A stretch of DNA of 64,000 nucleotides from an uncultured bacterium. Lineage in GTDB: Bacteria; Eisenbacteria; RBG-16-71-46. Of this stretch, positions 13,810-55,584 are shown piece by piece. The position numbers were made by a program, and so were the translations under genes. A model generated the notes under the pieces. That model did no database searches, was not told the origin of the DNA, and was given only the letters and a program-made list of their open reading frames with translations. The stretch spans positions 5,006 through 69,005 of the forward strand of contig CAZZLY010000001.1 of the NCBI GenBank assembly GCA_964655175.1, given 5' to 3'. The number at the start of each line of letters is the position of its first letter. Position 1 is the stretch's first letter.

Positions 13810-13824
13810 TCCCGGGTCGGGGTG

Positions 13825-19134: not shown

Positions 19135-19136
19135 CC

Positions 19137-21021: not shown

Positions 21022-21024
21022 ACG

Positions 21025-32697: not shown

Positions 32698-32850
32698 CAC
32701 AACGGGTTACGGCGGTACGCTCAAGCGTCGGGTGAGGTCTTCCCCGGCCCCTCGCGCGGTTCGCGGGGATGACCATCGGGCCGTCGGCGGGGTAGCATGC
32801 CGCGCTCGTCGTCCCGCCTTCGTTCGTCCCCGCCCGAGGAGAGCCTCGCG

Positions 32851-37094: not shown

Positions 37095-37155
37095 CGCGCC
37101 GCCGGGCCCGCGCGACGCGGGGCCCAGCGTTGACGCCCGGCGCACGCGCTCCCTA

Positions 37156-39000
37156 TTGTCCCGGGGCGCCGTCCCTCAAGCCCGTCCCCGGGAGTGTCCC
37201 GCCATCCGACGCCTGCTCTGGAGCTTCCTCGCCGCGATCCTCGTCGCCGCGCCCGTCGCGGCACAGGTGTCCGCGGTCGCCACCGCCGAGACCTGGGCCG
37301 CACCCGGCACGCCCGGGGGCGTCGACGACGTGCATCTGGGTCACGGGCTGCCGTTCGCGTGGCTCGGCCTCGTCGCGGGGGCGGTGGGTTCGCGGGATGC
37401 GCTCGTCGCGGGCACGGGGGCGTGGCCCGGGCTCGACGAACTGCAGGCGCCGGGCGCGTGGTACGACTCGTCGCGCGTGGTGATCGGTGCCGACGCGGGC
37501 TGGCGCGGGTACGCCGGGTCGCTCGTGACGCTGCAGAGCGATGCGCGCCCCGTGCGCACGGGCAAGCCGCGCGCGGCGTTCACGTACGTGACCGGTGCGG
37601 CAGGGGCGGATCGCAACGGCCTGTTGCTCGCGCGCGGGGACGGCAACGGTTGGTTGCGCGCCGGTGCGCTCGCCGAACGGCGCGACGTCGCCGGTCGGCT
37701 GGGGCTCGCGGGCCGACACCTGTGGTTCGTCGACGTGGGGCAGGTGCGCGGCGCGGGCACGCTGCGGGTGAACTTCACGCAGCGCGGGAACGCGACCACG
37801 ACGTTGGCCGACGCGAGCGAGGTCGATCTCATCGGGGGCCTGCGCCCGCCGTATCCGGGCTACGAGGACGCGGCGCACGGCGAGGCGGGCTTCGCCGAAT
37901 GGGCGTGGTCGCGCCACGGTCGCCGCGCCACGGTGCGCGCGACGCGCAGCCACGATCACCGGGAGTCGTTCGAGTCGCCCGTGCTCGGCGTGCAATCGCT
38001 GTTCGCGGAGCGCGAGGCGCAGCAGAACGGACTCGAGTTCGAGGCGGCGCGCGAACAGGACGGACGCACCGACGCGCTGCGACTCGAGCTCACCGAGGCG
38101 CGCGTCGCGCGCAGTGCGGACTACTTCTTCGATGGCGTGACGCCGCGCCTGTGGCGGCAGCGCACGGTGTGGCTCGCGGGTCGTCGCACGACCGCGTTCG
38201 CGGGCGGTGCGCTCGAGGGTCAGTTGGGGCTCGGCGCCCAGCGTGCGGTGGGTGGGTTGGGGGTGGCCCCGTCGCTCGAATGGCGCGGCCCCATGGCGGG
38301 CTCGCGCGTGCGCGTGCATGCGGGACGGCATCTGACGCCCGTGTGGAGCGACCTGGCGCCGGGCACCGATGCGTTCACGCAGGACGTCTGGCTCGTCGGC
38401 GCCGAGGACGCGTGGGGCGATCGTGCGCATCGCTGGCTCGAACTCGGCGTGCTCGGAGCCCGCATCGGCTCTCCGGCGGGACTCGATCGCACCCCCGTGC
38501 GCGACGTCGCGCTGCGTCGCGGCTGGACGCGGCTGGGCGCGTCGTCGCACGACGCCATGGTGACGCTGGGGCTGGGTGCGCGTCGCGGCACGTTCGGCGT
38601 GGACGCGAGCGGCTTCGCGCGCGTGCGGCCGCGCGTCGCCTTCGAGGCGCTCACCGAACCCGCGATCGGCGCGCGCGTCGGCGTGGAATCCGCGTTCCGG
38701 TTGTTCACCGGCGATCTGGGGGTGACGGTGCGACTCGAGGGCGCCTACGTGGGCGCGCGCGAGTGCGCCTCGCTGCCCGAGTACTCGGTCCGTCCGCTCC
38801 CGGTGGCCGCCACGACCACGTGGGGCGGTTCGCTCATGCTGGAGTTGGGGGATGCGCGTTTCGGGTTCCGCGCCTTCGATCTCGAGGACGTGGCGCACCC
38901 GCTCGCGTGGGCCGACCCCAGCCGCGCGTTCCCCGGTGCGGCCGCGGTGAGCGCGGGCCGACAGATCCGTTTCGAGCTGGCCTGGCCGTTCTTCAACTGA
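37156..39000 (+). CDS. Hypothetical secreted protein, putatively outer-membrane associated.
   Basis: Hydrophobic N-terminal segment LLWSFLAAILVAAPVAAQVSAV. The C-terminal half is rich in alternating amphipathic beta-like strands (RFGFRAFDL; IRFELAWPFFN). No recognisable catalytic motif. Start uncertain. Confidence 0.35.
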   Translation: MSRGAVPQARPRECPAIRRLLWSFLAAILVAAPVAAQVSAVATAETWAAPGTPGGVDDVHLGHGLPFAWLGLVAGAVGSRDALVAGTGAWPGLDELQAPGAWYDSSRVVIGADAGWRGYAGSLVTLQSDARPVRTGKPRAAFTYVTGAAGADRNGLLLARGDGNGWLRAGALAERRDVAGRLGLAGRHLWFVDVGQVRGAGTLRVNFTQRGNATTTLADASEVDLIGGLRPPYPGYEDAAHGEAGFAEWAWSRHGRRATVRATRSHDHRESFESPVLGVQSLFAEREAQQNGLEFEAAREQDGRTDALRLELTEARVARSADYFFDGVTPRLWRQRTVWLAGRRTTAFAGGALEGQLGLGAQRAVGGLGVAPSLEWRGPMAGSRVRVHAGRHLTPVWSDLAPGTDAFTQDVWLVGAEDAWGDRAHRWLELGVLGARIGSPAGLDRTPVRDVALRRGWTRLGASSHDAMVTLGLGARRGTFGVDASGFARVRPRVAFEALTEPAIGARVGVESAFRLFTGDLGVTVRLEGAYVGARECASLPEYSVRPLPVAATTTWGGSLMLELGDARFGFRAFDLEDVAHPLAWADPSRAFPGAAAVSAGRQIRFELAWPFFN

Positions 39001-39531: not shown

Positions 39532-39713
39532 TCGCTGCAGTCGGCCCGGAGGCCGTCCGATACCCACAGGGAACGAGGCCCGTTCGCTCGTCGAGCCCGC
39601 ACGGATGCGCGGCGACGATCGGGCGCGGCGTGCGCGTGCGTGCGCCGTGACGCGACAAGAAGTCCCGCTCCGAGAACGGGTTCCGCTCTCTCGCAACGCC
39701 CCCGGGGATCATC

Positions 39714-41414
<1,701 letters not shown>

Positions 41415-41439
41415 GCGGCCGCTCGAACGGAGAACGACG

Positions 41440-42522
41440 ATGGCGGAACTGACGCTGCTGCAGTTGCTCCAGGACATGGTCCAGCGCAAGGCGTCCGACC
41501 TGCACCTGACGGCCGGGGTGGCACCCGAACTGCGTATCGACGGCGCGATGACGCCGACGGAGTACGAGGTGCTGTCGCCGGATCGGTGCACGGCGCTCGC
41601 CTACAGCGTGCTCTCGGACGAGCAGCGCAAGCGTTTCGAGACGACCAAGGAGCTGGACTTCTCCTTCGGCGTCAAGAACCTCGCGCGCTTCCGCGCCAAC
41701 GTCTATCTGCAGAAGGGCTCGGTCGCGATGGCGCTGCGGCAGATCCCGTACGACATCATCCCGCTCGAGAAGCTGGGGCTGCCGCCGGTCGTGCGCGAGT
41801 TCACGAACCGTCACAAGGGCCTCGTGCTCGTGACCGGGCCCACGGGTTCGGGCAAGTCCACGACGCTCGCGTCCATGCTCGACCGCATCAACCAGACGCG
41901 GCAGTCGCACATCATGACGATCGAGGACCCGATCGAGTACATCCACCAGCACAAGAAGTCGATCGTGAACCAGCGCGAGGTGGGCGCCGACACGTCGTCG
42001 TTCCCGGCCGCGCTCAAGTACGTGCTGCGACAGGATCCCGACGTGATCCTGATCGGTGAGATGCGCGACCTCGAGACGATCGAGGCCGCCCTCACCATCG
42101 CCGAGACCGGTCACCTGGTGTTCGCGACGCTCCACACCAACTCCACGTACGAGGCGGTCAACCGCATCGTGGACGTGTTCCCCGCGGATCAGCAGAAGCA
42201 GATCCTCACCCAGCTCGCGTTCGTGCTGGAGGGCGTCATGACCCAGCAGCTCATCCCGCGCAGCCGCGGGACGGGCCGGATCATGTGCGCCGAGGTGCTG
42301 GTCTGCACGCCGGCCATCAAGGCCGTCATCCGTGAAGCCAAGACGCACCAGATCTACAGCCTCATGCAGGTCGGGCAGAAGTACGGCATGCAGACCATGA
42401 ATCAGGCACTCATGCAGGCCGTGCTCGACAAGCAGCTCACGTCCGAGGACGCCCTGGACCGCAGCACGGACCGCGTGGAGCTGGAAGGCATGCTCCAGAA
42501 GGTCCTGCGAGCGGCGGCCTGA
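41440..42522 (+). CDS. pilT: Twitching motility (retraction) ATPase.
   Basis: MAELTLLQLL...ASDLHL. Walker A LVLVTGPTGSGKSTTL. AIRNLIRE-like VIREAKTHQI motif. 360 aa. Confidence 0.9.
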   Translation: MAELTLLQLLQDMVQRKASDLHLTAGVAPELRIDGAMTPTEYEVLSPDRCTALAYSVLSDEQRKRFETTKELDFSFGVKNLARFRANVYLQKGSVAMALRQIPYDIIPLEKLGLPPVVREFTNRHKGLVLVTGPTGSGKSTTLASMLDRINQTRQSHIMTIEDPIEYIHQHKKSIVNQREVGADTSSFPAALKYVLRQDPDVILIGEMRDLETIEAALTIAETGHLVFATLHTNSTYEAVNRIVDVFPADQQKQILTQLAFVLEGVMTQQLIPRSRGTGRIMCAEVLVCTPAIKAVIREAKTHQIYSLMQVGQKYGMQTMNQALMQAVLDKQLTSEDALDRSTDRVELEGMLQKVLRAAA

Positions 42523-42538
42523 ACGGAGGACACGCACC

Positions 42539-43753
42539 ATGGCCATCTACGTGTGGAAGGGTCGTACGCTCGCGGGTGAGGCTCAGACCGGCGAGATCGA
42601 GGTGGGGCGCCAGGAGGAGGCCCTCGAGATCCTGCGCAAGAAGCGCATCCTCGTCACCTCGTTGAATCCCAAGGCGGGCGGCTTCGCGCTGCCCAAGCTG
42701 GGTGGCCCCGGCGTGTCCACGAAGGATCTCGCCATCTTCACCCGCCAGTTCGCGACCATGATCTCGGCGGGTCTGCCGCTCGTGCAGTGCCTCGACATCC
42801 TCGCCAAGCAGGCCAGCAAGCCGGGCTTCGGCAAGGTGATCGCCGAGACGACGCGCGAGGTCGAGGCCGGCTCGACGCTGTCCGACGCGTTGGGCAAGCA
42901 CCGCGCCGTGTTCGACGACCTGTTCCGCAACATGGTCGCGGCGGGTGAGGCGGGCGGTGTGCTCGACGAGATCCTCATGCGTCTGGCGACCTACATCGAG
43001 AAGGCCGACGCGCTCAAGCGCAAGGTCCAGAGCGCCATGGTGTATCCGGCCGTCGTGCTCTCGGTCGCGCTCGGCGCCACGGCGTTCATGCTCATCTTCA
43101 TCATCCCGACGTTCGCCAAGATGTTCACCGACTTCGGTGGCGAGCTGCCGCTGCCCACGAAGATCGTGCTCATCCTGTCGAACGTGCTCGTCCACTGGTG
43201 GTGGGCGGGTCTGCTCGGCATCGTCGGTGGCATCGTGGCGTTGACGCGCTACTACGCGACCGAGGACGGCCAGCGCCGCATCGACGGCATGCTCATCCGC
43301 ATGCCGGTGCTGGGCGACGTGCTCCTCAAGGGCGCCGTGGCCCGGTTCACGCGCACGCTGGGCACCCTGATCGCGTCCGGTGTGCCCATTCTGGCCGGTC
43401 TCGAGATCACCGCGCGCACGGCCGGCAACAAGGTCATCGCCGAGGCGATCATGAGCGCGCGCGCCTCGATCCGCGAGGGCGAGACGGTGTCCGCGCCGCT
43501 CAAGGCCTCGGGCGTGTTCCCGCCCATGGTCACGCAGATGATCGCGGTCGGCGAGCAGACCGGTGCGCTCGACGAGATGCTCACCAAGATCGCCGTGTTC
43601 TACGAGGCCGAGGTGGACACGGCCGTGGACACGCTCACCTCGATCATCGAGCCCGTCATGATCGTCGTCATGGGCGGCATCGTGGGCGGCATGGTCGTCG
43701 CCATGTATCTGCCGATGTTCAAGCTCATCAACGTCGTCGCGGGTGGCAACTGA
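42539..43753 (+). CDS. pilC: Type IV pilus inner-membrane platform protein (GspF family).
   Basis: Two T2SSF repeats (LATMISAGLPLVQCLDIL; LGTLIASGVPILAGLEI) and three predicted TM segments. 404 aa. Confidence 0.85.
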   Translation: MAIYVWKGRTLAGEAQTGEIEVGRQEEALEILRKKRILVTSLNPKAGGFALPKLGGPGVSTKDLAIFTRQFATMISAGLPLVQCLDILAKQASKPGFGKVIAETTREVEAGSTLSDALGKHRAVFDDLFRNMVAAGEAGGVLDEILMRLATYIEKADALKRKVQSAMVYPAVVLSVALGATAFMLIFIIPTFAKMFTDFGGELPLPTKIVLILSNVLVHWWWAGLLGIVGGIVALTRYYATEDGQRRIDGMLIRMPVLGDVLLKGAVARFTRTLGTLIASGVPILAGLEITARTAGNKVIAEAIMSARASIREGETVSAPLKASGVFPPMVTQMIAVGEQTGALDEMLTKIAVFYEAEVDTAVDTLTSIIEPVMIVVMGGIVGGMVVAMYLPMFKLINVVAGGN

Positions 43754-43754
43754 C

Positions 43755-45425
43755 ATGACCCCGACGCCCGCTCTCGGCCTCGTGAACGGCACGCCGCGCG
43801 CCTCGGACGCCTCGTCGCGTCCGAACGCGTGGCGGACGCTGCGGCCGCTGTTGCTCGGTCGGCCGCTCGTCGCGCTGGTGGCCTTGCCGGCGGGGCTGCT
43901 GCTGCGGCCGGACCTCGTGGGCCGTCCGGGGGCGTTCGCCCTGCTGGCGATCCTGACCGTCGCACTGGTCTCGTGCGGCTGGATGTGGCTCGCGCGCCGC
44001 TCGGCCGCGGTCGCACCGCAGCTCGCGGCGCAGCTCGGCGTCGACCTGCTGCTGGTGAGCGCGCTCGCCGCGCGCACGGGCGGGCAGGGCAGCCAGTACG
44101 TGTTGTTCTACGTGCTGGTGGTCATCACCGGTGGCGTGTTCGGCCGCCTCACGGGCGGCTTGCTGGCGGCGGCCGGAGCGGTCACGGGCTTCCTGTGGCT
44201 GCCGCGTCTGGCCGGTATGTTCGGGGTGACGCTGCCCAATCACGTCGAGCCCGAGGTCATGGTGACCTTCCTCGCCAGCGTCGGTGTGCTCGCCGGCGTG
44301 CTCGGCGATCGCGTGCAGCGCACCGTGGGCGAACTGGCGCGCACCGAGCGCGAGCTCGACCGCGTGCGGCTCGACAACGGCACCATCCTGCGTCATCTGG
44401 CGACCGGCATCCTCACGGTGGACGCCGACGGCTTCGTGGACGATCTGAACCCGGCCGCCGAGAACGTGCTCGGCCTCAAGGCCGACGCGGTGCGTGGCCT
44501 GCCGCTCGATCAGGCGCTGCCCTCGCGCCTGGCGGCCCTGCGCGAACTCATCCGGACGTCGCATCGCACCCGGACCGGGCGCGCCCGTGCCGAGGTCGAG
44601 GTCGCGACCGTGGCCGATCGCGTCCTGCCGCTGGGCGCGTCGACCAACGTCCTCACCCATGAGGACCAGCTCACCGGCGTCGTGGCCGTGTTCCAGGACC
44701 TGACCGCGGTCCGGGACATGGAGCGTCGGGTCCGGCGCAACGAGACCCTGGCCGAGGTCGGTGCCCTGGCGGCCGGGATCGCCCACGAACTGCGCAACGG
44801 CCTCAAGCCGATCAGCGGATCGGTGGAGGTTTTGCAACGTGAGCTCAAGTTGGAGGGTGAAACGGCCGAATTGATGGACCTAGTGGCGCGCGAATCCGCG
44901 CGACTCAACAAGTTCGTGACCGATCTCCTGACCTATTCCCGTGAGCGCGATCTGGCGCTGGAACCGGTGAGCCTCGACGCGCACCTGCGCGAGCTGGCCG
45001 GCAGCCTGCGACACGACCCGCGACGCGCACCGGGGGTGACGGTCGAGGTGGTCCCGGGGCCGGACGGCGCCCAGGTCGCGATCGACACGGAGCAGATGCG
45101 GCAGGTGTGGCTCAACCTCGCGTCCAACGCCCTCGAGGCGATGGGCGACCACGGCACCCTCACGATCACGTGGGTGGCGGTCGGGGAGAGCCAGGTGGCA
45201 GTGGAATTCCGGGACGAGGGTCCCGGCATCCCGGCCGACGATCTGCGTCGGATGGGAGAACCCTTTTTCACGACCAAACGGGGCGGGACGGGCCTGGGAC
45301 TCGCGATCGCACAGCGGATCGTCGAGCGCCATGCCGGCGTCCTGACCCTCGAGAGCGTGGCCGGTCAGGGTACGACCGCCCGGGTGCAGCTGCCCGGCGT
45401 GGCGAGCCTGACGCAGGCAGCGTGA
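43755..45425 (+). CDS. pilS: Sensor histidine kinase, PilS-like.
   Basis: Multi-TM N-terminus. PAS-like region. HisKA H-box IAHELRNGLKPI. HATPase N, G1 and G2 boxes (NLASNALEA; RDEGPGIP; GGTGLGLAI). The ATG at 43755 immediately follows the pilC stop. Confidence 0.7.
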   Translation: MTPTPALGLVNGTPRASDASSRPNAWRTLRPLLLGRPLVALVALPAGLLLRPDLVGRPGAFALLAILTVALVSCGWMWLARRSAAVAPQLAAQLGVDLLLVSALAARTGGQGSQYVLFYVLVVITGGVFGRLTGGLLAAAGAVTGFLWLPRLAGMFGVTLPNHVEPEVMVTFLASVGVLAGVLGDRVQRTVGELARTERELDRVRLDNGTILRHLATGILTVDADGFVDDLNPAAENVLGLKADAVRGLPLDQALPSRLAALRELIRTSHRTRTGRARAEVEVATVADRVLPLGASTNVLTHEDQLTGVVAVFQDLTAVRDMERRVRRNETLAEVGALAAGIAHELRNGLKPISGSVEVLQRELKLEGETAELMDLVARESARLNKFVTDLLTYSRERDLALEPVSLDAHLRELAGSLRHDPRRAPGVTVEVVPGPDGAQVAIDTEQMRQVWLNLASNALEAMGDHGTLTITWVAVGESQVAVEFRDEGPGIPADDLRRMGEPFFTTKRGGTGLGLAIAQRIVERHAGVLTLESVAGQGTTARVQLPGVASLTQAA

Positions 45426-45459: not shown

Positions 45460-46881
45460 ATGGCGGCCGAGAAGATCCTGGTGGTCGACGACGAACAGAG
45501 CATGACCCAGTTCCTGGGCATCGTGCTGCGCAAGGAGGGCTACCAGGTCACGACCGTGAACAGTGGTCGCGATGCCCTCGAGAAGATCCGCATGGAGCCC
45601 TTCGACGTCGTGCTGTCGGACATCAAGATGCCCGGCATGGACGGCATCCAGCTGCTCCAGGGCATCAAGAAGCACGACGCGAACATCCCGGTCGTGCTCA
45701 TGACGGCCTACGCGTCGCAGCAGACCGCCATCGACGCCGTGAATCTGGGTGCGTTCCAGTACCTGCTCAAGAACGCGAAGAACGACGAGATCCGTCTCGC
45801 CGTGCGCAACGCGCTCGAGATCCGCAAGGTCAAGAACGAGAACCAGTTCCTCAAGCGCGAGCTCAAGAAGGGCCACGAGGAGAAGGTCATCATCGGTTCG
45901 TCCGACGAGATGCTCCGCGTGTTCAAGATGGTGGACAAGGTCGCGGACAGCGAGGCCACGATCCTGATCCAGGGCGATTCGGGCACCGGCAAGGAGCTCA
46001 TCGCCCGCGAGATCCACTATCGCAGCCGCCGCGCCTCGGGTCCGTTCGTGAGCATCAACTGCGGTGCGATCCCGCGTGACCTGCTCGAGTCGAACCTGTT
46101 CGGGCACGTGAAGGGCTCGTTCACCGGTGCGGTGAAGGACTCGCCCGGCCTGTTCCAGGTGGCCGAGGGCGGTACGTTCTTCCTCGACGAGGTCGGTGAG
46201 ATGCCGCTCGCCACGCAGGTCAAGCTGCTGCGGGCGCTGCAGGAGCGCGAGATCATCCCGGTCGGCGGCACCACGCCGATCAAGATCGACTGCCGTCTCG
46301 TGGCCGCGACGAACGTGGACCTCGAGCGCGAGGTCGCCGAGGGCCGCTTCCGCGCCGATCTGTTCTTCCGCCTCAACGTCATCCCGCTGCGGATGCCGGC
46401 GCTGCGCCAGCGCCGCGACGACATCCCCGTGCTCGTGGACCACTTCCTCAAGCGCCACGCCAAGGGCGGCACGCCCAAGACCGTGACCAAGGAGGCCATG
46501 GAGCTGCTCATGAAGTACGACTGGCCGGGCAACGTGCGCGAGCTCGAGAACGTCATGGAGCGCGCCATGGTGCTGGACGAGGGTGGCGTGATCCATCCCG
46601 AGGACCTGCCGGACAAGATCCGCTTCGGTCACAGCCAGAAGGGCAGCCTGGTCATCGATACGCCCACGATGACGCTCGAGGAGCTCGAGAAGGAGTACAT
46701 CCTCAAGGTGCTCAACTTCACGCGCTGGCAGAAGAAGCGCTCGAGCGAACTGCTCGGCATCAACGCCTCGACGCTGTACCGCAAGCTGATCGGCTACGGC
46801 ATCGAGAAGCCGGGCAAGGAGCGGGGCGAGGGCGCCGAGGGCGAGGACGTGGTCGCCGAGGGTGACGAGCACGCAGCCTGA
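45460..46881 (+). CDS. pilR: Sigma-54-dependent response regulator (NtrC family), PilR-like.
   Basis: REC domain (VVDDE...D...K). AAA+ sigma-54 activator domain with Walker A GDSGTGKE and the GAFTGA-equivalent GSFTGA. C-terminal HTH. Confidence 0.85.
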   Translation: MAAEKILVVDDEQSMTQFLGIVLRKEGYQVTTVNSGRDALEKIRMEPFDVVLSDIKMPGMDGIQLLQGIKKHDANIPVVLMTAYASQQTAIDAVNLGAFQYLLKNAKNDEIRLAVRNALEIRKVKNENQFLKRELKKGHEEKVIIGSSDEMLRVFKMVDKVADSEATILIQGDSGTGKELIAREIHYRSRRASGPFVSINCGAIPRDLLESNLFGHVKGSFTGAVKDSPGLFQVAEGGTFFLDEVGEMPLATQVKLLRALQEREIIPVGGTTPIKIDCRLVAATNVDLEREVAEGRFRADLFFRLNVIPLRMPALRQRRDDIPVLVDHFLKRHAKGGTPKTVTKEAMELLMKYDWPGNVRELENVMERAMVLDEGGVIHPEDLPDKIRFGHSQKGSLVIDTPTMTLEELEKEYILKVLNFTRWQKKRSSELLGINASTLYRKLIGYGIEKPGKERGEGAEGEDVVAEGDEHAA

Positions 46882-47027
46882 GACGTGCGGGTCGCACGGT
46901 CCGTGGTCGGGGTGGCTGCAAATCGCCCGGCACCACGGATCGGCGAACCCGGGATGTGACACCCCGCCCTCGGCACAAGGTCTTGCCGGACAGCGGGAAG
47001 CAGGGAAGTCAGGGCCGCGCGCCCCGA

Positions 47028-47043
47028 TGGCACGCGGATTGCG
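47028..47043 (+). promoter_or_regulatory. Sigma-54 (-24/-12) promoter upstream of pilA.
   Basis: TGGCACGCGGATTGCG equals TGGCAC-N5-TTGC, an exact match to the GG-N10-GC consensus. It lies ~73 nt upstream of the pilA ATG and directly downstream of the PilR-like sigma-54 activator gene. Confidence 0.5.
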
Positions 47044-47115
47044 GTGAATCCACCCGACCGGTATCCGACCGGCAGGTGCGCCGCGGAATCCCAATCCTCC
47101 AGGGAGGTCAGGATC

Positions 47116-47562
47116 ATGACCAAGTCGCAGAAGGGCTTCACGCTGATCGAGCTGATGATCGTGGTCGTGATCATCGGTATCCTCGCCGCCATCGCCATCC
47201 CGAACTTCATCGCCATGCAGAACCGCGCGAAGGAGGGTTCGGTGAAGGCCAACATGCACACGTTCCAGCTCGCCGCCGAGGACTACGGCGTCCAGAACGA
47301 TGGCGTGTACGCGGCCAATGCCAGCTCGGTCGAGGCGCTGCTGCCCGCCGCGGGTGTGAACTTCAAGAACCCGTTCACCAAGGTCGCCGGCACGGGTGCG
47401 GCGTGGCTCGACGTCGCCACGTACCCGACGACGGGCAACCTGTCGACGGGCTCCACGGTCGCCGGCATCGTGGCCTACTCGGACAACGCGACGACGGCCT
47501 ACCAGGTCGCCGGTCGTGGCAAGACGGCGGATCTCGCGCTGGTGCTCACCAGCGGTCAGTGA
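47116..47562 (+). CDS. pilA: Type IVa major pilin, copy 1.
   Basis: Class III signal MTKSQKG/FTLIELMIVVVIIGILAAIAIP, with Gly-1, Phe+1 and Glu+5. RBS AGGGAGG. 148 aa. No cysteine anywhere in the protein. Confidence 0.85.
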   Translation: MTKSQKGFTLIELMIVVVIIGILAAIAIPNFIAMQNRAKEGSVKANMHTFQLAAEDYGVQNDGVYAANASSVEALLPAAGVNFKNPFTKVAGTGAAWLDVATYPTTGNLSTGSTVAGIVAYSDNATTAYQVAGRGKTADLALVLTSGQ

Positions 47563-47580
47563 TCCCACGCGGTCGTGGGA
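47563..47580 (+). terminator. Perfect 7-bp stem / 4-nt loop hairpin immediately after the pilA stop.
   Basis: tcccacg-cggt-cgtggga begins at the first base after the TGA. It may act as an attenuator or partial terminator between the two pilin genes. No U-tract follows, as is usual in high-GC genomes. Confidence 0.35.
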
Positions 47581-47853
47581 TGTGGGCGGGCCCGCTGGGC
47601 TCGCTCCCGTCCCGCGGCCGATGCGGGCGGACGACGCCCGCGACGGAGGGGCGGCGCGGTGGATCGGGTGACCGGTCGCCGCACTCGAGCCTCCGGCAGT
47701 CCAGCCGATACTCGACGTCGGGGCGGTTCTGCGGAGTCCACGCCCCGGGCCCTGCTCGCGAGCGAGGGTGATGACGGGACCGCAGCCAACCGGGCTCTCG
47801 TGGGTCCATCCGGACCTGCGCCATCCATAGCCTACCTGCGAGGGAGTGCGAAC

Positions 47854-48300
47854 ATGTCACGCAATCAGAAGGGCTTCACGCTGATCGAGCTCATGATCGT
47901 GGTCGTCATCATCGGCATCCTGGCCGCCATCGCGATCCCGAACTTCATCGCCATGCAGAACCGTGCGAAGGAAGGCTCGGTCAAGTCGAACATGCACACC
48001 TTCCAGCTGGCGGCCGAGGATTACGGCGTCCAGAACGACGGTGTGTACGCGGCGACGGCCGGTGCGGTCGAGGCCCTGCTGCCGAACGCCGGGGCGAACT
48101 TCAAGAACCCGTTCGACAAGACGACGGGTTCGGGTGCGGCGTGGCTCGACGTGGCCACGTACCCGACGACGGGCAATCTGGCGACCGGTTCCACGATCGC
48201 CGGTATCGTCGCCTACTCGGACAACGCGACGACGGCCTACCAGGTCGCCGGCCGCGGCAAGACGGCGGATCTGTCGCTGGTGCTCTCGAGCGGCCAGTAG
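47854..48300 (+). CDS. Type IVa pilin, copy 2 (divergent tandem paralog).
   Basis: MSRNQKG/FTLIELMIVVVIIGILAAIAIP. It is ~90% amino-acid identical to copy 1, but carries many synonymous codon differences. RBS GAGGGAG. 148 aa, cysteine-free. Confidence 0.85.
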   Translation: MSRNQKGFTLIELMIVVVIIGILAAIAIPNFIAMQNRAKEGSVKSNMHTFQLAAEDYGVQNDGVYAATAGAVEALLPNAGANFKNPFDKTTGSGAAWLDVATYPTTGNLATGSTIAGIVAYSDNATTAYQVAGRGKTADLSLVLSSGQ

Positions 48301-48323
48301 TCTCGATCCCGCAGGTTCCGGAC

Positions 48324-48360
48324 GGGGGTGCGCCTCGAGCGCACCCCCGTTCTGTTTCAC
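48324..48360 (+). terminator. Rho-independent terminator after the second pilin gene.
   Basis: gggggtgcg-cctcgag-cgcaccccc forms a 9-bp GC-rich stem, followed by gttctgtttcac (T-rich). Confidence 0.55.
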
Positions 48361-48483
48361 CCCTCGGGAGCGACTCGCGGCACGGGGGTTGCAAAACCTC
48401 TCGACGCCAGCGGTGCAGCCTCGCCGCAGCGGTGCAGCCAAGCGGTTGCCCGCCAACACGTTCGCCTCGGGAGACCACCTCGA

Positions 48484-49533
48484 ATGTCGATGCTGGGACA
48501 GGGTACGACGGCCAAGCCGGAGCCGCAGCGGACGGGGACTGACCGCCCGACCGTGCAGAACGCAACCCCTGCAGCCGGGGCGGCGGTCTCGGTCCGCGGC
48601 CTCACCAAGAGCTACCGCCACCCCTGGACGATGCAGGTGACCCCGGGCCTGACCGACGTGACGTTCGACGTCCGGCCGGGCGAGGTGTTCGGCTACCTGG
48701 GCCCCAACGGCGCCGGCAAGACGACCACGATCAAGCTGCTCGCCGGATTGCTCAAGCCCACGAGCGGGCAGGCGTGGTTGTTCGGTACGTCCATCGATCG
48801 CGTCGAGAGCCGCCGTCGGCTGGGTTTCCTGCCGGAGCAGCCGTACTTCTACGACTCGCTCACCGGCGTCGAGTACCTCGAGTTCGTGGCGCGTCTCTCG
48901 GGTCTGTCGGGGCGTGACGCCGCCGCCGCCGCGCGCCGTTGGTTCGGCAAGGTGGGCCTGGGGGAGCGCGCGCGTCTGGCGCTGCGCAAGTACTCCAAGG
49001 GCATGCTGCAGCGCCTCGGGCTCGCGGCCGCCATGGTGCACGAGCCCGACCTGCTCATCCTCGACGAGCCCATGAGCGGTCTCGATCCGTTCGGCCGTCG
49101 CGACGTGCGCGACCTGATCCTGGAGCAGCGCGAGCGCGGCGCCACGGTCATGCTGTCGAGCCACATCCTGCCCGACGTCGAGGCGCTGTGCGATCGCGTC
49201 GGCATCGTGCTGCGCGGACGGCTCACGCGCGTGGCGAGCGTGGGTGAGCTCATCGAGGGCGGCACGCCGCGCATCGAACTGCGCGTCGCGGGTCAGCCGC
49301 TGCTCGCGATCCCGGTGACGCTCGCCGACGTGATCGAGCGCTCGACGCACGCGGGCGACACCGTGTTCACGCTGCACGACCCGACGCGGCAGCAGGAGGT
49401 GCTCGCGTGGCTCGTGCAGCAGCGCGCCACCGTGCAGTCCATGACGCCGGTGCGCGGCACGCTCGAGGACCTGTTCATGGCCACGGCCGAGAGCGCCGCG
49501 TTCCATGGCAACGTCGCGCGGAGGTCGGCGTGA
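48484..49533 (+). CDS. ABC transporter ATP-binding protein, ABC-2 subfamily, in the position of M. xanthus PilH.
   Basis: Walker [11 protein letters not shown]-loop. ABC signature [15 protein letters not shown]. Walker B LLILDEP. H-loop SSHIL. Confidence 0.75.
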
Positions 49534-50291
49534 TCGCGCTCATCGCCCGGAACACCTTCCGCGAGGCGGTCCGCGACCGCGTGCTCGCGGGCATCGTCGT
49601 CGCCGGCCTCGCGCTGCTCGCGCTCACGCGGCTCGCCAGCCCGCTCGCCATGGGCGAGGGGCTGCGGCTCACCGTGGACCTGGGGCTGTCGGGCATCACC
49701 TGGCTCGGGCTTGTCGTCGTGCTCATGGTGGGTTCGAGTCTCGTGTCCAAGGAGATCGACCGTCGCACCATCTTCAACCTGCTGTCGCGCCCGCTGCCGC
49801 GGCCCTATTACCTCGTGGGCAAGTGGGCCGGTCTGACGGCGGCGCTCGCGTCGGTCGCGGTGATCCTGGGCCTCGCGCTCGCGGGCATGCTCGTGCTGCT
49901 CGGGCACGCCGAGGCGCTGCCCGCCATCGCGCAGGCGGTCGTGCTCGCGATGCTCGAACTCGCGGTCGTGTGCTCGATCGCGGTCATGTTCTCGGCGCTC
50001 TCGACGCCGGTGCTGTCGGCGCTCTACACGCTCGGGCTGTTCCTGGCGGGACAGTGGACCGACGACCTGCGCCGCTTCGCCGAGCACGCGCCGGGCTCGC
50101 TCGGCACGCTGCTCACGACGGCCGCGAACCTGCTGCCCAACCTGTCGCTGTTCAACATGCGCTCGCTCGCCTCGCTCGGCACCTGCACGACGGTCGAGCA
50201 CCTCGCGGTCGCGACGGGCTATGCCGCGCTCTACTGCGGTTGCGTGCTGCTGCTGGGTGCGGCCGCGTTCGAATCGCGGGACTTCAAGTGA
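49530..50291 (+). CDS. ABC-2 type transporter permease, in the position of M. xanthus PilI.
   Basis: Six predicted TM helices and no soluble domain. The GTG start overlaps the stop of the ATPase gene (GTGA). Confidence 0.6.
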   Translation: MIALIARNTFREAVRDRVLAGIVVAGLALLALTRLASPLAMGEGLRLTVDLGLSGITWLGLVVVLMVGSSLVSKEIDRRTIFNLLSRPLPRPYYLVGKWAGLTAALASVAVILGLALAGMLVLLGHAEALPAIAQAVVLAMLELAVVCSIAVMFSALSTPVLSALYTLGLFLAGQWTDDLRRFAEHAPGSLGTLLTTAANLLPNLSLFNMRSLASLGTCTTVEHLAVATGYAALYCGCVLLLGAAAFESRDFK

Positions 50292-51046
50292 GCACGCTCG
50301 CGCTCACGATCCCGCCGCTGCGTCAGCGGATGATCGCCCAGTGGGCGGGTGCCCTCGTGTGCGCCACGCTCATGGCGATGACCGCGTCGTGGGCCGCGCG
50401 GCATCTGCCGCAGCGTCCGGCGTTCGAGGAGCTCGCGTACTACCCGTCGGGCCAGGCGCTGCGTCCCGCCACGTTCGGTCACGCCGAGTCGGCGGCCGAC
50501 CTGGCGTGGCTGCGTGCGGTGCAGTACTACGGCGAGCACCGTCAGACCGATCTGCGGTTCGTGAAGATGGAGCACGTGTTCGACGTGCTCACCTCGCTCG
50601 CGCCGCGGTTCGAGAGCCCGTACGTGTTCGGCGCGTTCGCGCTGGCGCAGGAGGGGCACGACTTCCCGGCCGCCGAGCGCCTCATGCTGAAGGGCCTCGC
50701 CGCCAATCCGCGCAGCGGCCGGCTCGCGTTCGAGATGGGCTTCCTCTACTACGTCCGTCCCGGGGGGCGCGACCTCGCGCACGCGGCGGAGTGGTTCGAG
50801 CGCGCCTCGCATCTGCCCGGCGCCCCGGCCAACGCCGCGCGCTTCGCCGCGTTCACGCGCCAGCACGGCGGCGACCTGATCGTCGCGCTGCAACTCTGGA
50901 AGCAGATCCACGCCACCACGGGCAATCGCTACCTGCGGGACATCGCCGAACGGGAGGCCGAGCGGATCCAGGCCGCGTTGGCCGCCGGGCGTCGGGAACG
51001 GGCGATGACCCGGCTCTCGACCCCGATCGTCCGCACGAAGCCCTGA
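50288..51046 (+). CDS. Hypothetical helical (TPR-like) protein coupled to the ABC transporter. It is a possible PilG-like accessory.
   Basis: N-terminal hydrophobic segment IAQWAGALVCATLMAMTASWAA, then helical repeats (LMLKGLAANPRSGRLAFEMGFLYY). GTGA overlap with the permease. Assigned by context only. Confidence 0.35.
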   Translation: MSTLALTIPPLRQRMIAQWAGALVCATLMAMTASWAARHLPQRPAFEELAYYPSGQALRPATFGHAESAADLAWLRAVQYYGEHRQTDLRFVKMEHVFDVLTSLAPRFESPYVFGAFALAQEGHDFPAAERLMLKGLAANPRSGRLAFEMGFLYYVRPGGRDLAHAAEWFERASHLPGAPANAARFAAFTRQHGGDLIVALQLWKQIHATTGNRYLRDIAEREAERIQAALAAGRRERAMTRLSTPIVRTKP

Positions 51047-51241
51047 CGAACGGTGGGTGGGATGACCCAACGCGTTGGAAACCGCCCTTCAGTTCGGTCG
51101 CCACGGTGCCGACACTCACCGTGAAGGCGGGACCCCGCACGGACGCACCCTCGGGCTCCGTCGGGTGATGGATGACGAGGACCCTGCCGTCGCACGCACG
51201 ACGATGGGGACGACCCGCACCACCTGGTGAGGAGTACACAC

Positions 51242-52297
51242 ATGTTCTTCGGGAAGCAGCCGTCGCTCGTGGGCCTCGACATCGGCAGCCACAGCGTCAA
51301 GGTGGTGGAGCTGCAGGCGTTGCCGAACAAGACCTTCAAGCTGGTCAATTACGGCATCTCGCAGCCGTTGTCCGAAGCGATCGTGGACGGCGAGATCATG
51401 GATCGCCAGCTCGTCACGGACGCCATCGCGAACCTGCTCGAGTCGCGGGGCATCAAGGCCAAGACGGTCGTCGCCGCCGTGTCCGGCCGCGCGGTCATCG
51501 TGAAGAAGATCACGATGAACAAGCTGTCGGCCGAGGACGCGAAGCAGGCGATCGTGTGGGAGGCCGAGCAGCACGTCCCGTACGACATCAACGACGTCTC
51601 GCTCGACTTCGAGATCCTGGGCCAGGCGCCCAACGACCCGCAGCAGATGCAGGTCCTGCTCGTCGCCGCCAAGAAGGACATGGTGCTGTCGTTCAGCGAC
51701 CTCATCCGTGAGGCCGGGCTGCAGCCCACCGTCGTGGACGTGGATTCGTTCGCGGCGCAGAACGCGATCGAAGCCAACGTCGATCTGGGCCCCGATCAGG
51801 TCGTCGCCATCCTCAACGTGGGTGGCGAGATGACGAACATCAACATCGTGCAGGGCGGCGTGCCGTACTTCACGAAGGACCTGCAGATCGGCGGCGACAC
51901 GTTCGTCGAGGCGGTCCAGCGTCGCTTCAATCTGAGCCAGGCCGAGGCCGCCGCCGCCGTGCGCGGTGAGGCCGGCGCCGGACTCGAGGTGGGCCCGGTC
52001 ATCGAACAGGCCGCCGAGGGCATCGCCACCGCGCTCGACCGCGCGCAGGCCTACCTGCGCACCGCGGGCGAGGCGGGCACGCTCAATCGCATCCTGCTGT
52101 GCGGCGGCAGCGCGCTGACGCCGGGGCTCGCCGACTTCCTGGCGCGCCGCTTCCAGGTCACGGCCGAGGTCGTGAACCCGCTCGCGCGCATCGCCTACGA
52201 CCCGGCGCTGTTCGCCGGGCAGGACGTGATGAAGGTGGCGCCCCTTCTCACGGTCGGCATCGGTCTGGCCCTGCGCCGCCCGGGGGACAAGCGATGA
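51242..52297 (+). CDS. pilM: Type IV pilus assembly protein PilM (actin-like ATPase fold).
   Basis: LVGLDIGSHSVKVVEL ... ILLCGGSALTPGLADFLARRF is an FtsA/actin-like fold. 351 aa. Confidence 0.85.
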   Translation: MFFGKQPSLVGLDIGSHSVKVVELQALPNKTFKLVNYGISQPLSEAIVDGEIMDRQLVTDAIANLLESRGIKAKTVVAAVSGRAVIVKKITMNKLSAEDAKQAIVWEAEQHVPYDINDVSLDFEILGQAPNDPQQMQVLLVAAKKDMVLSFSDLIREAGLQPTVVDVDSFAAQNAIEANVDLGPDQVVAILNVGGEMTNINIVQGGVPYFTKDLQIGGDTFVEAVQRRFNLSQAEAAAAVRGEAGAGLEVGPVIEQAAEGIATALDRAQAYLRTAGEAGTLNRILLCGGSALTPGLADFLARRFQVTAEVVNPLARIAYDPALFAGQDVMKVAPLLTVGIGLALRRPGDKR

Positions 52298-52872
52298 TCC
52301 GCGTCAATCTGCTGCCGCGCGAGGACAAGTCGCCGCGAGGCGGTCACGCCCTGAAGGTCAACGTCAAGGTCGGCGACCTCGTGTTGCCGATGGTCGTGCT
52401 CGGTGCCGCGGTCGTCGTGATCGCCGGTGCCGCGCTGTCGCAGCACTCGCGCGGCCAGGCGCTCGATCGCTCGATCCGGCAGGTGGACGCCGAGTCGCGC
52501 GCGCTCGCGCCGCAGATCGCGCGCGTGAACCAGTTGGCGCAGGAGCGCGCCGAGCTGGATCTGCGCATGGGCATCATCACCAAGTTGGAACGCGGTCGCA
52601 CCGAGGGTGTCCGGCTCATGGATGAGTTGGCGCGGTGCGTTCCGGACCACCTCTGGCTGACGGGGGTCTCCCAGGATGGGAGCAACCACCTGCAGGTGGA
52701 GGGGGTCACCTATTCGAACCTCGTCGTCTCCGACTTCATGTCGCGCATCGAACGCGCCGACCTGTTCTCGAACGTCGAGCTCTCGTTCGCCGAGCGCGGT
52801 GTGGTGAACGAGAAGAACGTCGTGAAGTTCCAGGTCAGCTGCACGGTGAGCCCCGAATCGGGCGCGAACTAG
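52294..52872 (+). CDS. pilN: Type IV pilus assembly protein PilN.
   Basis: MIRVNLLPRE start with a single TM and a periplasmic coiled coil. ATGA overlap with pilM. Confidence 0.75.
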   Translation: MIRVNLLPREDKSPRGGHALKVNVKVGDLVLPMVVLGAAVVVIAGAALSQHSRGQALDRSIRQVDAESRALAPQIARVNQLAQERAELDLRMGIITKLERGRTEGVRLMDELARCVPDHLWLTGVSQDGSNHLQVEGVTYSNLVVSDFMSRIERADLFSNVELSFAERGVVNEKNVVKFQVSCTVSPESGAN

Positions 52873-52888
52873 GAGAGGACCCGCCATC

Positions 52889-53521
52889 ATGCCCAACCTC
52901 GATCTGAAGAGTCCGGCGGCCCAGCGGTTCGTGCTCACGTTGCTCCTCGCGGGCGGCGCGGTCGGTCTGTACTTCGGCTCGCGTCTCACGCCGTGGACGT
53001 TCCCGAGCACGCAGGACCGTCTCGCCGAGACGCAGGCGCAGTACGAGAAGAAGTCGGCCGAGCTGGCGCGCGCGCGCGCGTCGGTCGCCGACCTGCCCCG
53101 CTTCGAGGCCGAGTACCAGCAGCTGCACCAGCGCTGGGAGCTCGCCTCCGAGCTGCTGCCGACCGATCGCCAGCTGCCGACCCTGCTGCGGCGCATCACG
53201 CTCGCGGGTCAGCAGACGGGCGTCACGTTCAAGGTGTTCCGTCCGGCCGGCGTGAAGCCGTCCGACTACCACACCGAGATGCCGATCAACGTCGCGGTCT
53301 CCGGCGACTATCACGCGGTGGGGTCGTTCCTCGCCGAGCTCGCCAACATGCGACGCATCGTGACGGTCTCGAACCTCAAGCTCGCGACCAACACGCGCAC
53401 CGAGGACGGCGGCACGACGCTCGCCGAGTTCACCGCCTCGGCCTACAGCCTCAACACCGCGCCGGCCACCACGCCGGGGGCGGCCACCACGAAGGGGGGC
53501 GCCAATGCCCGGAAGATCTGA
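52889..53521 (+). CDS. pilO: Type IV pilus assembly protein PilO.
   Basis: Single TM (FVLTLLLAGGAVGLYF). Coiled coil. C-terminal PilO core (PINVAVSGDYHAVGSFLAELANMRRIVTVSNLKL). Confidence 0.7.
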   Translation: MPNLDLKSPAAQRFVLTLLLAGGAVGLYFGSRLTPWTFPSTQDRLAETQAQYEKKSAELARARASVADLPRFEAEYQQLHQRWELASELLPTDRQLPTLLRRITLAGQQTGVTFKVFRPAGVKPSDYHTEMPINVAVSGDYHAVGSFLAELANMRRIVTVSNLKLATNTRTEDGGTTLAEFTASAYSLNTAPATTPGAATTKGGANARKI

Positions 53522-54227
53522 CGCCGTGGCCGGTCCGCTCCAGGCCCTGCGCGACCCGCGGACGCAGCGGATCGTCGGTCTCGTCGCACTCGTGCTGACC
53601 ACCGCGGCGCTCGGCGCCTGGCGCATGGGTTGGCTGGGTGGCACCGGCACGAGCGAGGAGACCGTCGTCGTGCAGACGCCGCCGCGCAAGGCCCGTCCGC
53701 ACCGTGTCGTGCCGCTCGCGGTGGCCCCGAAGGCGGACACGACGACCCCGTCGGCGCCCGTCGTCATGGGTCCGGAACCCGCGCCCAAGCCCGCCACGCG
53801 ACTCGCCTCGAGCACCGGGGTGGACGCGGCCGTGATCACGCTGGTGCCCGTGCAGGCGCCCGTCGTGCCGCCGCCGACGCCGCAGGTCGAGGAGCACGTC
53901 ACGTATCAGTACAACGCCATCGGTCGCCGCGACCCGTTCGTCTCGCTGGTCGGCGGGACGTTCGTCGGTGCCGACGTCGGTGGCGATGCGCCGCCCGATC
54001 CGGGTGGCATCAAGGTCGTGGGCATCGTCTGGGGCGCGACCGACCAGTTCGCGATGGTCGAGGACGTCCGTGGCAACAGCTACGTGCTCCGCAAGGGTGA
54101 TGCGCTGCAGAACGGCGTCGTCGACGAACTCCGTCGCGATGCCATCGTGGTCAGCATCAAGACCGATGGCCAGAGCCAGCAGGTCGTGATTCCGTTCACG
54201 CGGAAGGGAGACGGCAATGATCGCTAA
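53505..54227 (+). CDS. pilP: Type IV pilus assembly protein PilP-like.
   Basis: N-terminal anchor. Pro/Ala-rich linker. C-terminal beta domain (YVLRKGDALQNGVVDELRRDAIVV). Assigned mainly by position between pilO and pilQ. Confidence 0.5.
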   Translation: MPGRSDAVAGPLQALRDPRTQRIVGLVALVLTTAALGAWRMGWLGGTGTSEETVVVQTPPRKARPHRVVPLAVAPKADTTTPSAPVVMGPEPAPKPATRLASSTGVDAAVITLVPVQAPVVPPPTPQVEEHVTYQYNAIGRRDPFVSLVGGTFVGADVGGDAPPDPGGIKVVGIVWGATDQFAMVEDVRGNSYVLRKGDALQNGVVDELRRDAIVVSIKTDGQSQQVVIPFTRKGDGNDR

Positions 54228-55584
54228 GAAGATGGGTCTCGGCATCCTGATCGTGACGTTCCTCATGAGCGTCGCGGCGGTTCCCGTCGTGGCCCAGTCG
54301 TCGGCGGGCAGCACGGTGGGCCTGGTCAAGACGGGCACCGGCAGCTTCAGCCTCGACGTGGACGGTGCGGATCTTCGCACCGTGCTGCGGGCGATCTCGG
54401 AGTTCAGCGGTCGCAACATCGTGCTCGGCACGACCGCCAAGGGCACGGTCCGTCTCACCGTGAAGAACGTCGCGTGGCAGGACGCGCTCAAGGCGGTCCT
54501 GCGTGCGAACGGCCTCGATTACGTCGAGGACGGCGCCATCATCCGCGTGGACGATGCCGCCAAGCTCAACGCGGAGAAGGTGGACCGCGAGACGGCCAAC
54601 GCGCGCACGCTCGAACTCGTGCCGCTCGAGACGCGCATCGTGAAGCTGAGCTATGCGAACGCCTCGGAGCTCACGACGCCGCTCGGCGCCACGCTCTCCA
54701 AGCGCGGCACGATCCAGGTCGAGAAGCGCACGAACTCGCTCATCGTGACCGATCTGCCGTCGAACCTCGACGCGATCACGCAGATGGCGAACCAGCTCGA
54801 TTCCGAGACGCCGCAGATCAAGATCGAGGCGAAGCTGGTGGACCTCGACGAGGGCGACGTGACCGCGCTGGGCGTCGAATGGACGCACGGCATCGGCCAG
54901 TCGCAGTTCGTCTCGGACGGCGCCGGCGCCCCGATCCAGCTGCGCCCGGCCGTGAGCCCGCACGGCAGCGTGACCATGGGCTCGCAGGTCTCGACCGGCA
55001 TCGCCGGTCCGGCCGCCCGCGTGAACTTCGGTGTCTTCCGTCGTTGGGGTGACCTCGAGGCGTCGCTGCAGGCGCTCGCCAGCCAGAACAAGGCCGAGAT
55101 CATCTCGAACCCGGTCATCACGACGGTGGACAACCGTGAAGCGAAGATCGTCGTGGGCCAGAAGATCCCGCTCATCGTGCAGGACGTGGCCGGTAATCCG
55201 GTCTCGCAGCTGCAGACGGTCGGCATCCAGCTGCGCGTGACGCCGCACCTGACGTCCGAGAAGAAGATCGTGCTCGACCTGCATCCCGAGGTCAGCGATC
55301 TCGCGTCGGGCTCCACGGTGCAGGGTGGTCTCATCATCAACACGTCTGAAGCCGACACGCGCGTGATGGTCGAGGACGGCGAGATCGCCGTCATCGGTGG
55401 CCTCAAGCGCAAGAACACGACCTCGGTCAACCGTGGTGTGCCGGTGCTGCGCAGCATCCCGCTGCTGGGCATGCTGTTCAGCTCGAACACCGACACGCAC
55501 GCCGAGCGCAGCCTCGTGATCTTCGTGAAGCCGACGCTGGTCACGTCGTTGGCGGCCGACGCCTCCGAGACGCCCAGCAAGTAA
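54217..55584 (+). CDS. pilQ: Type IV pilus secretin.
   Basis: Signal peptide. N0/N1 domains (DLRTVLRAISEFSGRNIVL). Secretin core (VIGGL...VPVLRSIPLLGMLFS...ERSLVIFVKPTLV). Only 455 aa, with no AMIN domains. Confidence 0.8.
   Translation: MIAKKMGLGILIVTFLMSVAAVPVVAQSSAGSTVGLVKTGTGSFSLDVDGADLRTVLRAISEFSGRNIVLGTTAKGTVRLTVKNVAWQDALKAVLRANGLDYVEDGAIIRVDDAAKLNAEKVDRETANARTLELVPLETRIVKLSYANASELTTPLGATLSKRGTIQVEKRTNSLIVTDLPSNLDAITQMANQLDSETPQIKIEAKLVDLDEGDVTALGVEWTHGIGQSQFVSDGAGAPIQLRPAVSPHGSVTMGSQVSTGIAGPAARVNFGVFRRWGDLEASLQALASQNKAEIISNPVITTVDNREAKIVVGQKIPLIVQDVAGNPVSQLQTVGIQLRVTPHLTSEKKIVLDLHPEVSDLASGSTVQGGLIINTSEADTRVMVEDGEIAVIGGLKRKNTTSVNRGVPVLRSIPLLGMLFSSNTDTHAERSLVIFVKPTLVTSLAADASETPSK

Follow-up and report, generated by a model that had tools for sequence, protein, structure and literature searches.

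A conserved tandem pair of cysteine-free type IVa pilin genes in an uncultured bacterium allied to Candidatus Eisenbacteria

Two intact pilin genes in tandem

We analyzed a 64,000-nucleotide (nt) stretch of contig CAZZLY010000001.1 (assembly GCA_964655175.1; hereafter, the window, in whose numbering positions are given), centering on two adjacent genes for type IVa-type pilins, here termed pilA-a and pilA-b (Table 1). A first-pass annotation, made from the sequence before any database search, had described them as an old duplication encoding two 148-amino-acid (aa) pilins of about 90% identity, with many synonymous differences and with both copies under purifying selection. Pairwise alignment bore out the similarity, with 131 of the 148 residues (88.5%) and 383 of the 447 nucleotides (85.7%) identical. 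Synonymous changes predominate, as 31 of the 48 differing codons are purely synonymous and 17 are nonsynonymous, and the four synonymous examples originally named are all correct (codon 13 ctg/ctc, 18 gtg/gtc, 21 ggt/ggc, and 37 cgc/cgt). By the Nei-Gojobori method, the synonymous divergence (dS) is 0.457 and the nonsynonymous divergence (dN) is 0.074, for a dN/dS ratio (omega) of 0.16. Neither copy is decaying or lacks a ribosome-binding site or start codon, the Shine-Dalgarno sequence lying 7 to 8 nt from the ATG in both; both are maintained as coding genes. A public protein (P0007) matches PilA-b at 100% identity, and PilA-a falls in the same 90% cluster.

The differences between the two proteins are unevenly distributed. 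Three lie in the leader, at positions 2 to 4; of the 14 in the mature protein, nine fall within residues 61 to 96 (hypergeometric P = 0.0014), and the core helix (mature residues 1 to 53) differs only once (A45S in prepilin numbering). Since residues 61 to 96 precede the first strand of the predicted structure (see below), the clustering in the alpha-beta loop that the annotation had claimed stands; the segment FTKVAGTG/FDKTTGSG (aa 87 to 94), however, which it had assigned to the C-terminal region, also lies before strand 1. We found no region of the pair with an omega above 1, the maximum being 0.43 for aa 66 to 95. The duplication does not extend into the flanks: neither the region upstream of pilA-a compared with the spacer nor the two downstream regions compared with each other showed similarity above that of shuffled controls.

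Pilin class, predicted fold, and cysteines

Both leaders are short, basic, and Gly ended and are followed by an invariant FTLIELMIVVVIIGILAAIAIPNF. Both proteins carry a class III signal, that is, a leader ending in Gly, a mature Phe1 (FTLIE), Glu5, and a hydrophobic N terminus. Profile searches matched both to the prepilin N-terminal methylation motif (PF07963, E values of 1e-10 to 2.5e-11; TIGR02532, above the cutoff). No other Pfam domain was matched in either pilin, and all of the NCBIfam full-length pilin and pseudopilin models remained below their cutoffs for both, the best being the Myxococcus PilA model (62 bits versus a cutoff of 400, over the N-terminal helix only). GspG, the major pseudopilin of type II secretion systems (T2SS), was considered as an alternative assignment and rejected, as TIGR01710 reached 50.9 bits versus a cutoff of 88.85, over residues 6 to 76 only, and the neighbors are pil genes, including that of PilT. 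The identification as type IVa-type pilins is thus upheld by the short leader, by G-1, F+1, and E+5, and by clustering with PilB, PilT, PilC, PilM, PilN, PilO, and PilQ.

Structure prediction, which the annotation had proposed as a check, yielded the usual pilin fold. An AlphaFold2 model of the pilA-a product, built from 122 family members, has a mean predicted local distance difference test (pLDDT) score of 90.9 and the canonical order of elements, namely, a predicted helix at residues 10 to 60, a loop with short helices at residues 69 to 73 and 77 to 80, and strands at residues 97 to 100, 119 to 124, 128 to 134, and 139 to 145.

The pair had also been singled out as lacking cysteines and with them the C-terminal disulfide-bonded D-region loop. 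This is correct, but it is not special to the pair: a survey of relatives showed that 110 of the 120 closest homologs are likewise free of cysteine and that the other ten have one. Among 145 pilin-like open reading frames (ORFs) from genome loci sampled across phyla, a sample that includes pseudopilins and minor pilins, 57 (39%) have none. Major pilins mostly carry a C-terminal disulfide loop, although cysteine-free pilins are known too (PMC11046646; Clostridioides difficile PilA1, PMC7057214); the Thermus and Myxococcus pilins whose structures are solved do contain disulfides (PMC7203116, PMC11046646). For a major pilin of a diderm type IVa system to lack cysteine is thus more unusual than it would be in a monoderm, although proteins of this kind are already known. 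We infer that the missing disulfide characterizes the lineage and plays no particular part in the pairing.

Age of the duplication and selection on the copies

The same pair, with a spacer of 286 to 291 nt, is present in six metagenome assemblies that are independent of one another (L001, L162, L163, L164, L165, and L166; in L165, the second copy is cut by the contig end). Copies a of different genomes are 89 to 91% identical in nucleotides and copies b are 92% identical, while a and b within one genome are 86 to 91% identical. In quartets of the four genes of two genomes, the informative sites favor orthology: L164 and L166 give 30 sites supporting orthology, 5 concerted sites, and 3 crossed sites, and the window and L164 give 18, 4, and 5, respectively. 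As a groups with a and b groups with b in the five lineages in which the pair is present, the duplication predates these lineages, and the claim that it is old holds. For orthologs, omega comes to about 0.15 among copies a and 0.08 among copies b, and both copies are under purifying selection.

Tandem pilins in the wider family

Database searching with the pilin recovered more than 7,500 matching proteins; the 120 best homologs are 143 to 184 aa long (mostly 144 to 149 aa) and 68 to 97% identical to it. A metagenome survey with an alignment stripped of the generic N terminus as the query, which replaced an earlier scan with a generic N-terminal motif, returned 80 loci. The counts that follow in this paragraph pool these metagenome loci with those of the close relatives and with the nearest loci from genomes. 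Tandem pilins predominate in the clade: two or three genes are present in 59 of the 68 loci that could be resolved and a single gene is present in 9, with 23 further loci being too short.

The pairs fall into two classes. In the divergent class, the two pilins are 41 to 71% identical and the members are positional orthologs across loci. In the similar class, they are 89 to 99% identical, with dS ranging from 0.03 to 0.39 and omega ranging from 0.04 to 0.16 in five of seven pairs, and their differences recur at leader codons 2 to 4. Where three genes are arrayed, two of them form a similar pair and the third is a divergent copy. The pair in the window is the most diverged member of the similar class.

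Sequence exchange between copies and surface variation

In the quartet of L164 (positions 1377 to 2556) and L166 (2800 to 3980), the five concerted sites are contiguous (nt 192 to 208, codons 64 to 70), with no orthology site between them. This pattern marks a short gene conversion tract that arose within the alpha-beta loop of one of the two lineages. A more extensive event is seen at a third locus (L128, 4905 to 5966), where two tandem copies are nearly identical from codon 5 to the stop codon (three synonymous differences), similarity drops to background directly outside, and a third pilin, 71% identical, follows. The pattern suggests that the entire coding region was converted recently, and its homology borders are those of the window pair, in which the flanks of the two genes have nothing in common. 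Conflicting sites in the window pair itself are dispersed, with a mixed phylogenetic signal over the 3' two-thirds; these sites could equally be explained as homoplasy at G/C third positions.

These observations bear on the proposal that the two genes encode antigenically distinct subunits, for which the support is weak. The loops do differ in this genome, in which copy a carries the derived residues V81, T88, V90, A91, and T93 and the outgroups have the b state. In the closest relatives, however, a and b have the same or almost the same alpha-beta loop (0 to 2 nonsynonymous changes in codons 61 to 100), and the two proteins differ mainly at leader residues 2 to 4 and a few C-terminal positions. 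If it exists at all, antigenic distinctness would thus be peculiar to this lineage and not general to the pair.

Promoters, stem-loops, and terminator

The region 5' of pilA-a is 76 to 80% identical between lineages, versus 58 to 66% pairwise identity for the whole spacer between the two genes. It contains a sigma-54 promoter, and 68 of 86 related loci have a similar site 75 to 95 nt 5' of their first pilin gene. The block further upstream is a candidate binding region for the activator PilR, as judged from its position.

The annotation had reported that the copies are separated by a hairpin starting directly after the first stop codon. Such a hairpin, with a stem of 7 bp, exists, but it is not conserved in relatives and is mutually exclusive with a larger, overlapping stem-loop, which is the conserved one. 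In five lineages, the latter shares a consensus stem of 17 bp, and 5 of its 23 predicted pairs show compensatory changes; it lacks a U-tract in this genome, while 3 to 4 U residues follow it in L162 to L164. We regard it as a candidate attenuating terminator or 3'-end stabilizer.

Within the spacer, conservation is concentrated in islands in the last 130 nt, which are 65 to 85% invariant. ACUCUC (47794 to 47799), in one of these islands, is predicted to pair with GGGAGU (47843 to 47848) at the Shine-Dalgarno sequence of pilA-b; the two segments are invariant in five lineages, so that covariation gives no support, and the pairing could act as a translational mask. Scans of the spacer recovered no sigma-54 site for pilA-b with two or fewer mismatches, no sigma-70 consensus, and no canonical terminator. 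A -10-like GATAMT and a GGAAC resembling a site for an extracytoplasmic function (ECF) sigma factor, both picked by eye, were dropped, as neither is conserved in this genome. Downstream of pilA-b lie a terminator-like hairpin and a sigma-54-like promoter. Because the latter is invariant in five lineages, the transporter genes that follow may also answer to a PilR-like activator.

In other lineages, the second pilin has its own sigma-54 promoter in 17 of 37 cases, often where the spacer is about 250 nt or longer. Examples with the promoter 57 to 96 nt 5' of the second pilin and spacers of about 250 to 400 nt include L093, L094, L096, L099, L103, L104, L105, L117, L123, L127, L135, L143, L152, L154, and L159. 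Second pilins behind spacers of 65 to 140 nt almost never have one, with one exception (L129).

Genomic setting and host

The genes for the type IVa machine surround the pilin pair in the expected order, including those for PilT and the secretin (Table 1). The same order is found in the Myxococcus xanthus pil cluster, pilB-pilT-pilC-pilS-pilR-pilA, then ABC transporter (ATP-binding cassette) genes, and then pilM to pilQ. The 251-aa protein that follows the permease may be a third transporter component. No prepilin peptidase or minor-pilin gene was detected in the window, in which the motif scan matched only the two pilin N termini; these components must therefore be encoded elsewhere. An Rfam search of the whole window recovered no known RNA family.

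TABLE 1 Pilin genes, predicted signals, and neighboring genes in the window
Feature	Position	Strand	Description
pilB	39651-41414		T2SSE domain
pilT	41356-42522		T2SSE domain
pilC	42401-43753		T2SSF domain
PilS-like sensor histidine kinase	43743-45425	+	PAS, HisKA, HATPase_c; directly upstream of response regulator
PilR-like sigma-54-dependent response regulator	45460-46881	+	Response_reg, Sigma54_activat, HTH_8
Conserved block	46888-46930	+	...GCACGGTCCGTGG...GGCTGCAAATCGCCCG...; nearly invariant in five lineages; ~100-140 nt upstream of sigma-54 promoter
Sigma-54 promoter (-24/-12) of pilA-a	47028-47042	+	TGGCACGCGGATTGC; perfect consensus match; 74 nt 5' of pilA-a; invariant in five lineages
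Shine-Dalgarno sequence of pilA-a	47102-47107	+	GGGAGG; from sequence; 8 nt 5' of ATG
pilA-a	47116-47562	+	ATG 47116 to TGA 47562; 148-aa prepilin, leader MTKSQKG, mature F1...E5, 0 Cys
Small hairpin	47562-47581	+	AUCCCACG-cggu-CGUGGGAU (TCCCACG-cggt-CGTGGGA); -12.4 kcal/mol; 3/200 shuffles fold equally well
Strong stem-loop just 3' of pilA-a	47568-47620	+	-52.4 kcal/mol over 47560-47630 (71 nt), z -4.9
3' part of spacer and pilA-b leader	47723-47852	+	Islands 47723-47752, 47773-47802, 47813-47852
Shine-Dalgarno sequence of pilA-b	47840-47846		GAGGGAG
pilA-b	47854-48300	+	ATG 47854 to TAG 48300; 148-aa prepilin, leader MSRNQKG, 0 Cys
Terminator-like hairpin	48320-48352	+	GGACGGGGGUGCGC-cucga-GCGCACCCCCGUUC, then UGUUUC; -32 kcal/mol, z -3.7; GC-rich stem invariant in five lineages
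Sigma-54-like promoter ahead of ABC transporter genes	48378-48393	+	CGGCACGGGGGTTGCA; one consensus mismatch; invariant in five lineages
ABC ATPase	48328-49533		
ABC-2 permease	49407-50291		
251-aa protein	50291-51046		No Pfam match; coding-like GC3 (G+C at third codon positions); follows ABC permease in relatives too
pilM	51227-52297		PilM_2 domain
pilN	52297-52850		PilN domain
pilO	52850-53521		PilO domain
ORF in pilP position	53364-54227		No PilP match in Pfam or NCBIfam
pilQ	54190-55584		Secretin domain

The source organism is an uncultured soil bacterium, diderm and allied with Candidatus Eisenbacteria. Its diderm nature follows from the encoded secretin, and among the matches listed, the nearest in the genome collection to the pilin and to the PilR-like protein (65 to 69% identity) are metagenome-assembled genomes labeled Candidatus Eisenbacteria. 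The G+C content of the window is 71%. Elsewhere in the window, positions 9037 to 14879 encode a 1,590-aa protein with a C25 (gingipain-type) peptidase domain and an Ig-like C terminus, followed by a gene for a PorV-like protein; as type IX secretion-type components, these fit a host of the Fibrobacterota-Chlorobiota-Bacteroidota (FCB) group. Positions 28161 to 34383 carry a histidine utilization set (an aromatic amino acid [histidine] ammonia-lyase, an imidazolonepropionase-like amidohydrolase, and a formiminotransferase-cyclodeaminase), and three sizeable ORFs with coding-like GC3 (36967 to 39000, 21022 to 24369, and 18717 to 20018) have no Pfam match.

Interpretation of the pair

We interpret pilA-a and pilA-b as two functional paralogs, each encoding a major-type subunit of one type IVa pilus machine under the control of PilS/PilR and sigma-54, and assign this composite explanation, including unequal coexpression and a shared filament, a probability of roughly 0.6. 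That they supply the most abundant subunit of the filament is suggested by the pilSR neighborhood and the sigma-54 promoter. Transcription would start at the promoter 5' of pilA-a, the conserved stem-loop after pilA-a would stop or stabilize most transcripts, and the remainder would read through into pilA-b, whose ribosome-binding site may be partly masked, to end at the conserved terminator behind it. The cell would thus make much PilA-a and less PilA-b. Both prepilins would be cut by the same peptidase and polymerize into the same filament, providing either an extra supply of subunits or a mixed surface. The succession of promoter, a, stem-loop, b, terminator, and next promoter is most simply read as one transcription unit yielding more a than b, and the near identity of the core helices suggests a common filament. 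The layout makes the graded expression envisaged in the first-pass annotation plausible; for its other option, a switch between the copies, we found no support.

Several points weigh against this interpretation. Foldseek searches with the full or helix-trimmed model recovered no similar solved structure, so that the predicted fold depends on the order of secondary structure elements and on N-terminal homology, and assembly into one filament is suggested by the near-identical core helix alone. Termination at the stem-loop behind pilA-a is uncertain, given that it lacks a U-tract here. A spacer of 291 nt is long for simple read-through, and the islands in its 3' half could be an unrecognized promoter of pilA-b; the 17 of 37 second pilins with their own sigma-54 promoter indicate that independent regulation is common in the clade.

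A possible alternative, to which we would give only a minority share of the probability, is that the pair amounts to one subunit, with the second copy kept for dosage or robustness and with the surface differences in this genome being incidental drift. The mature proteins of close relatives differ at only 6 or 7 positions, with loops as little changed as described above, and similar pairs elsewhere are 92 to 99% identical in protein despite dS values of up to 0.39 (with the low omega values given above), which argues that selection keeps the proteins of such pairs alike. Yet a and b carry fixed differences across lineages in leader residues 2 to 4 and at a few C-terminal sites, copy a in this genome has its derived loop residues, and only a has a recognizable promoter.

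Specialization of the copies, be it by condition-specific expression or as filaments of different function, appears unlikely. Specialized pilin pairs such as Legionella PilA1/PilA2 or Thermus PilA4/PilA5 have been reported. Of two related, adjacent Legionella pilins, only one acts as the major pilin (PMC13170364). The conserved islands in the 130 nt 5' of pilA-b and the many related loci whose second pilin has its own sigma-54 promoter point in the same direction. Against this, no promoter motif was found for pilA-b in the spacer, it is only behind b that a terminator and the next promoter are found, and 88.5% identity with a near-identical core helix makes separate filament types improbable.

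More doubtful still is the notion that copy b serves mainly as a sequence donor for gene conversion, varying the surface of the expressed subunit in a two-gene form of pilin antigenic variation. The contiguous concerted sites of L164/L166, the near-identical copies of L128 with their sharp borders, and the mixed signal in the 3' two-thirds of the window pair would agree with it. However, copy b retains its full length, its start codon, its ribosome-binding site, and its leader and has the lowest omega (0.08), as expected of a translated protein and not of a silent cassette; there is only a single donor; and in a genome of 71% G+C, the mixed signal is perhaps homoplasy at G/C third positions. 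A silent cassette of the Neisseria type, in the strict sense of a promoterless, 5'-truncated donor, was rejected for the same features of pilA-b.

Finally, an assembly artifact joining two strain variants of one gene in tandem, favored by nothing beyond the metagenomic origin of the sequence, is rejected as having a negligible probability, because six assemblies made independently from different samples share the layout, with a unique, nonrepetitive spacer, and the flanks of the two copies are dissimilar. Our interpretation of the genes as coexpressed paralogs and the dosage, specialization, and donor alternatives are not mutually exclusive.

Comparison with known systems

The closest parallels are Streptococcus sanguinis PilE1/PilE2 and Legionella pneumophila PilA1/PilA2. 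The S. sanguinis pilins are likewise encoded by adjacent, highly similar, intact genes, with a (nearly) identical core helix, no disulfide loop (PMC10628169, PMC6497953), and differences in the alpha-beta region and the C terminus. In S. sanguinis, the two major pilins coassemble stochastically in one heteropolymeric type IV pilus (PMC10628169). S. sanguinis is a monoderm in which coassembly is proven experimentally, and PilE1 has an extra 8-aa loop. Here, in contrast, the host is a diderm, the system is known from its genes, and the first gene alone has a recognizable promoter, a layout that hints at unequal amounts of a and b versus the comparable amounts expected of the S. sanguinis type. 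L. pneumophila PilA1/PilA2 resemble the present pair in being two related pilins of one locus in a diderm, both predicted to be major, with PilS/PilR present, but PilA2 alone behaves as the major pilin and the phenotypes differ (PMC13170364).

The best sequence match among solved structures is M. xanthus PilA (PDB code 8tj2; E = 1.3e-16, N-terminal helix only), which is unlike the present pilins in having 208 aa in its mature form, two disulfides, and extra free cysteines (PMC11046646). Cysteine-free proteins of canonical fold without a D region include C. difficile PilA1 (PMC7057214), Gram-positive pilins (reviewed in reference 22 of PMC11046646), and GspG of T2SS. These, however, are monoderm pilins or secretion pseudopilins, whereas the present pair belongs to a type IVa cluster containing PilT and a secretin.

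In Neisseria pilE/pilS, the donors are silent, 5'-truncated cassettes in many copies, and short conversion tracts move surface loop sequence. In the present system, a short tract between the copies is seen in relatives, and the window pair itself has scattered conflicting sites; the second copy in our case, on the other hand, is complete and under strong purifying selection.

Significance

Tandem pilins, filaments of two pilins, and disulfide-free pilins have all been described before, and the pair is unsurprising to a specialist and leaves the general understanding of pili unchanged. What it adds is a well-supported, retained duplicate of a major pilin in a phylum without cultured members, for which we found no pilus literature. 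Cysteine-free type IVa pilins emerge as the norm in that lineage, and a recurring architecture (sigma-54 promoter, pilin, stem-loop, second pilin, terminator) is documented, which could guide expression studies.

A broader generalization, which we offer tentatively and regard as rather improbable in its entirety, is that paired or tripled major-pilin genes are normal across the Eisenbacteria-like clade and are kept similar by purifying selection together with conversion confined to the coding region, which leaves the leader codons and flanks distinct. To our knowledge, heteropolymeric type IVa pili have so far been shown only in a monoderm. If the generalization is true, these diderms may routinely build mixed (heteropolymeric) type IVa pili, and exchange between two genes would be a simple way to vary the pilus surface against phages or predators.

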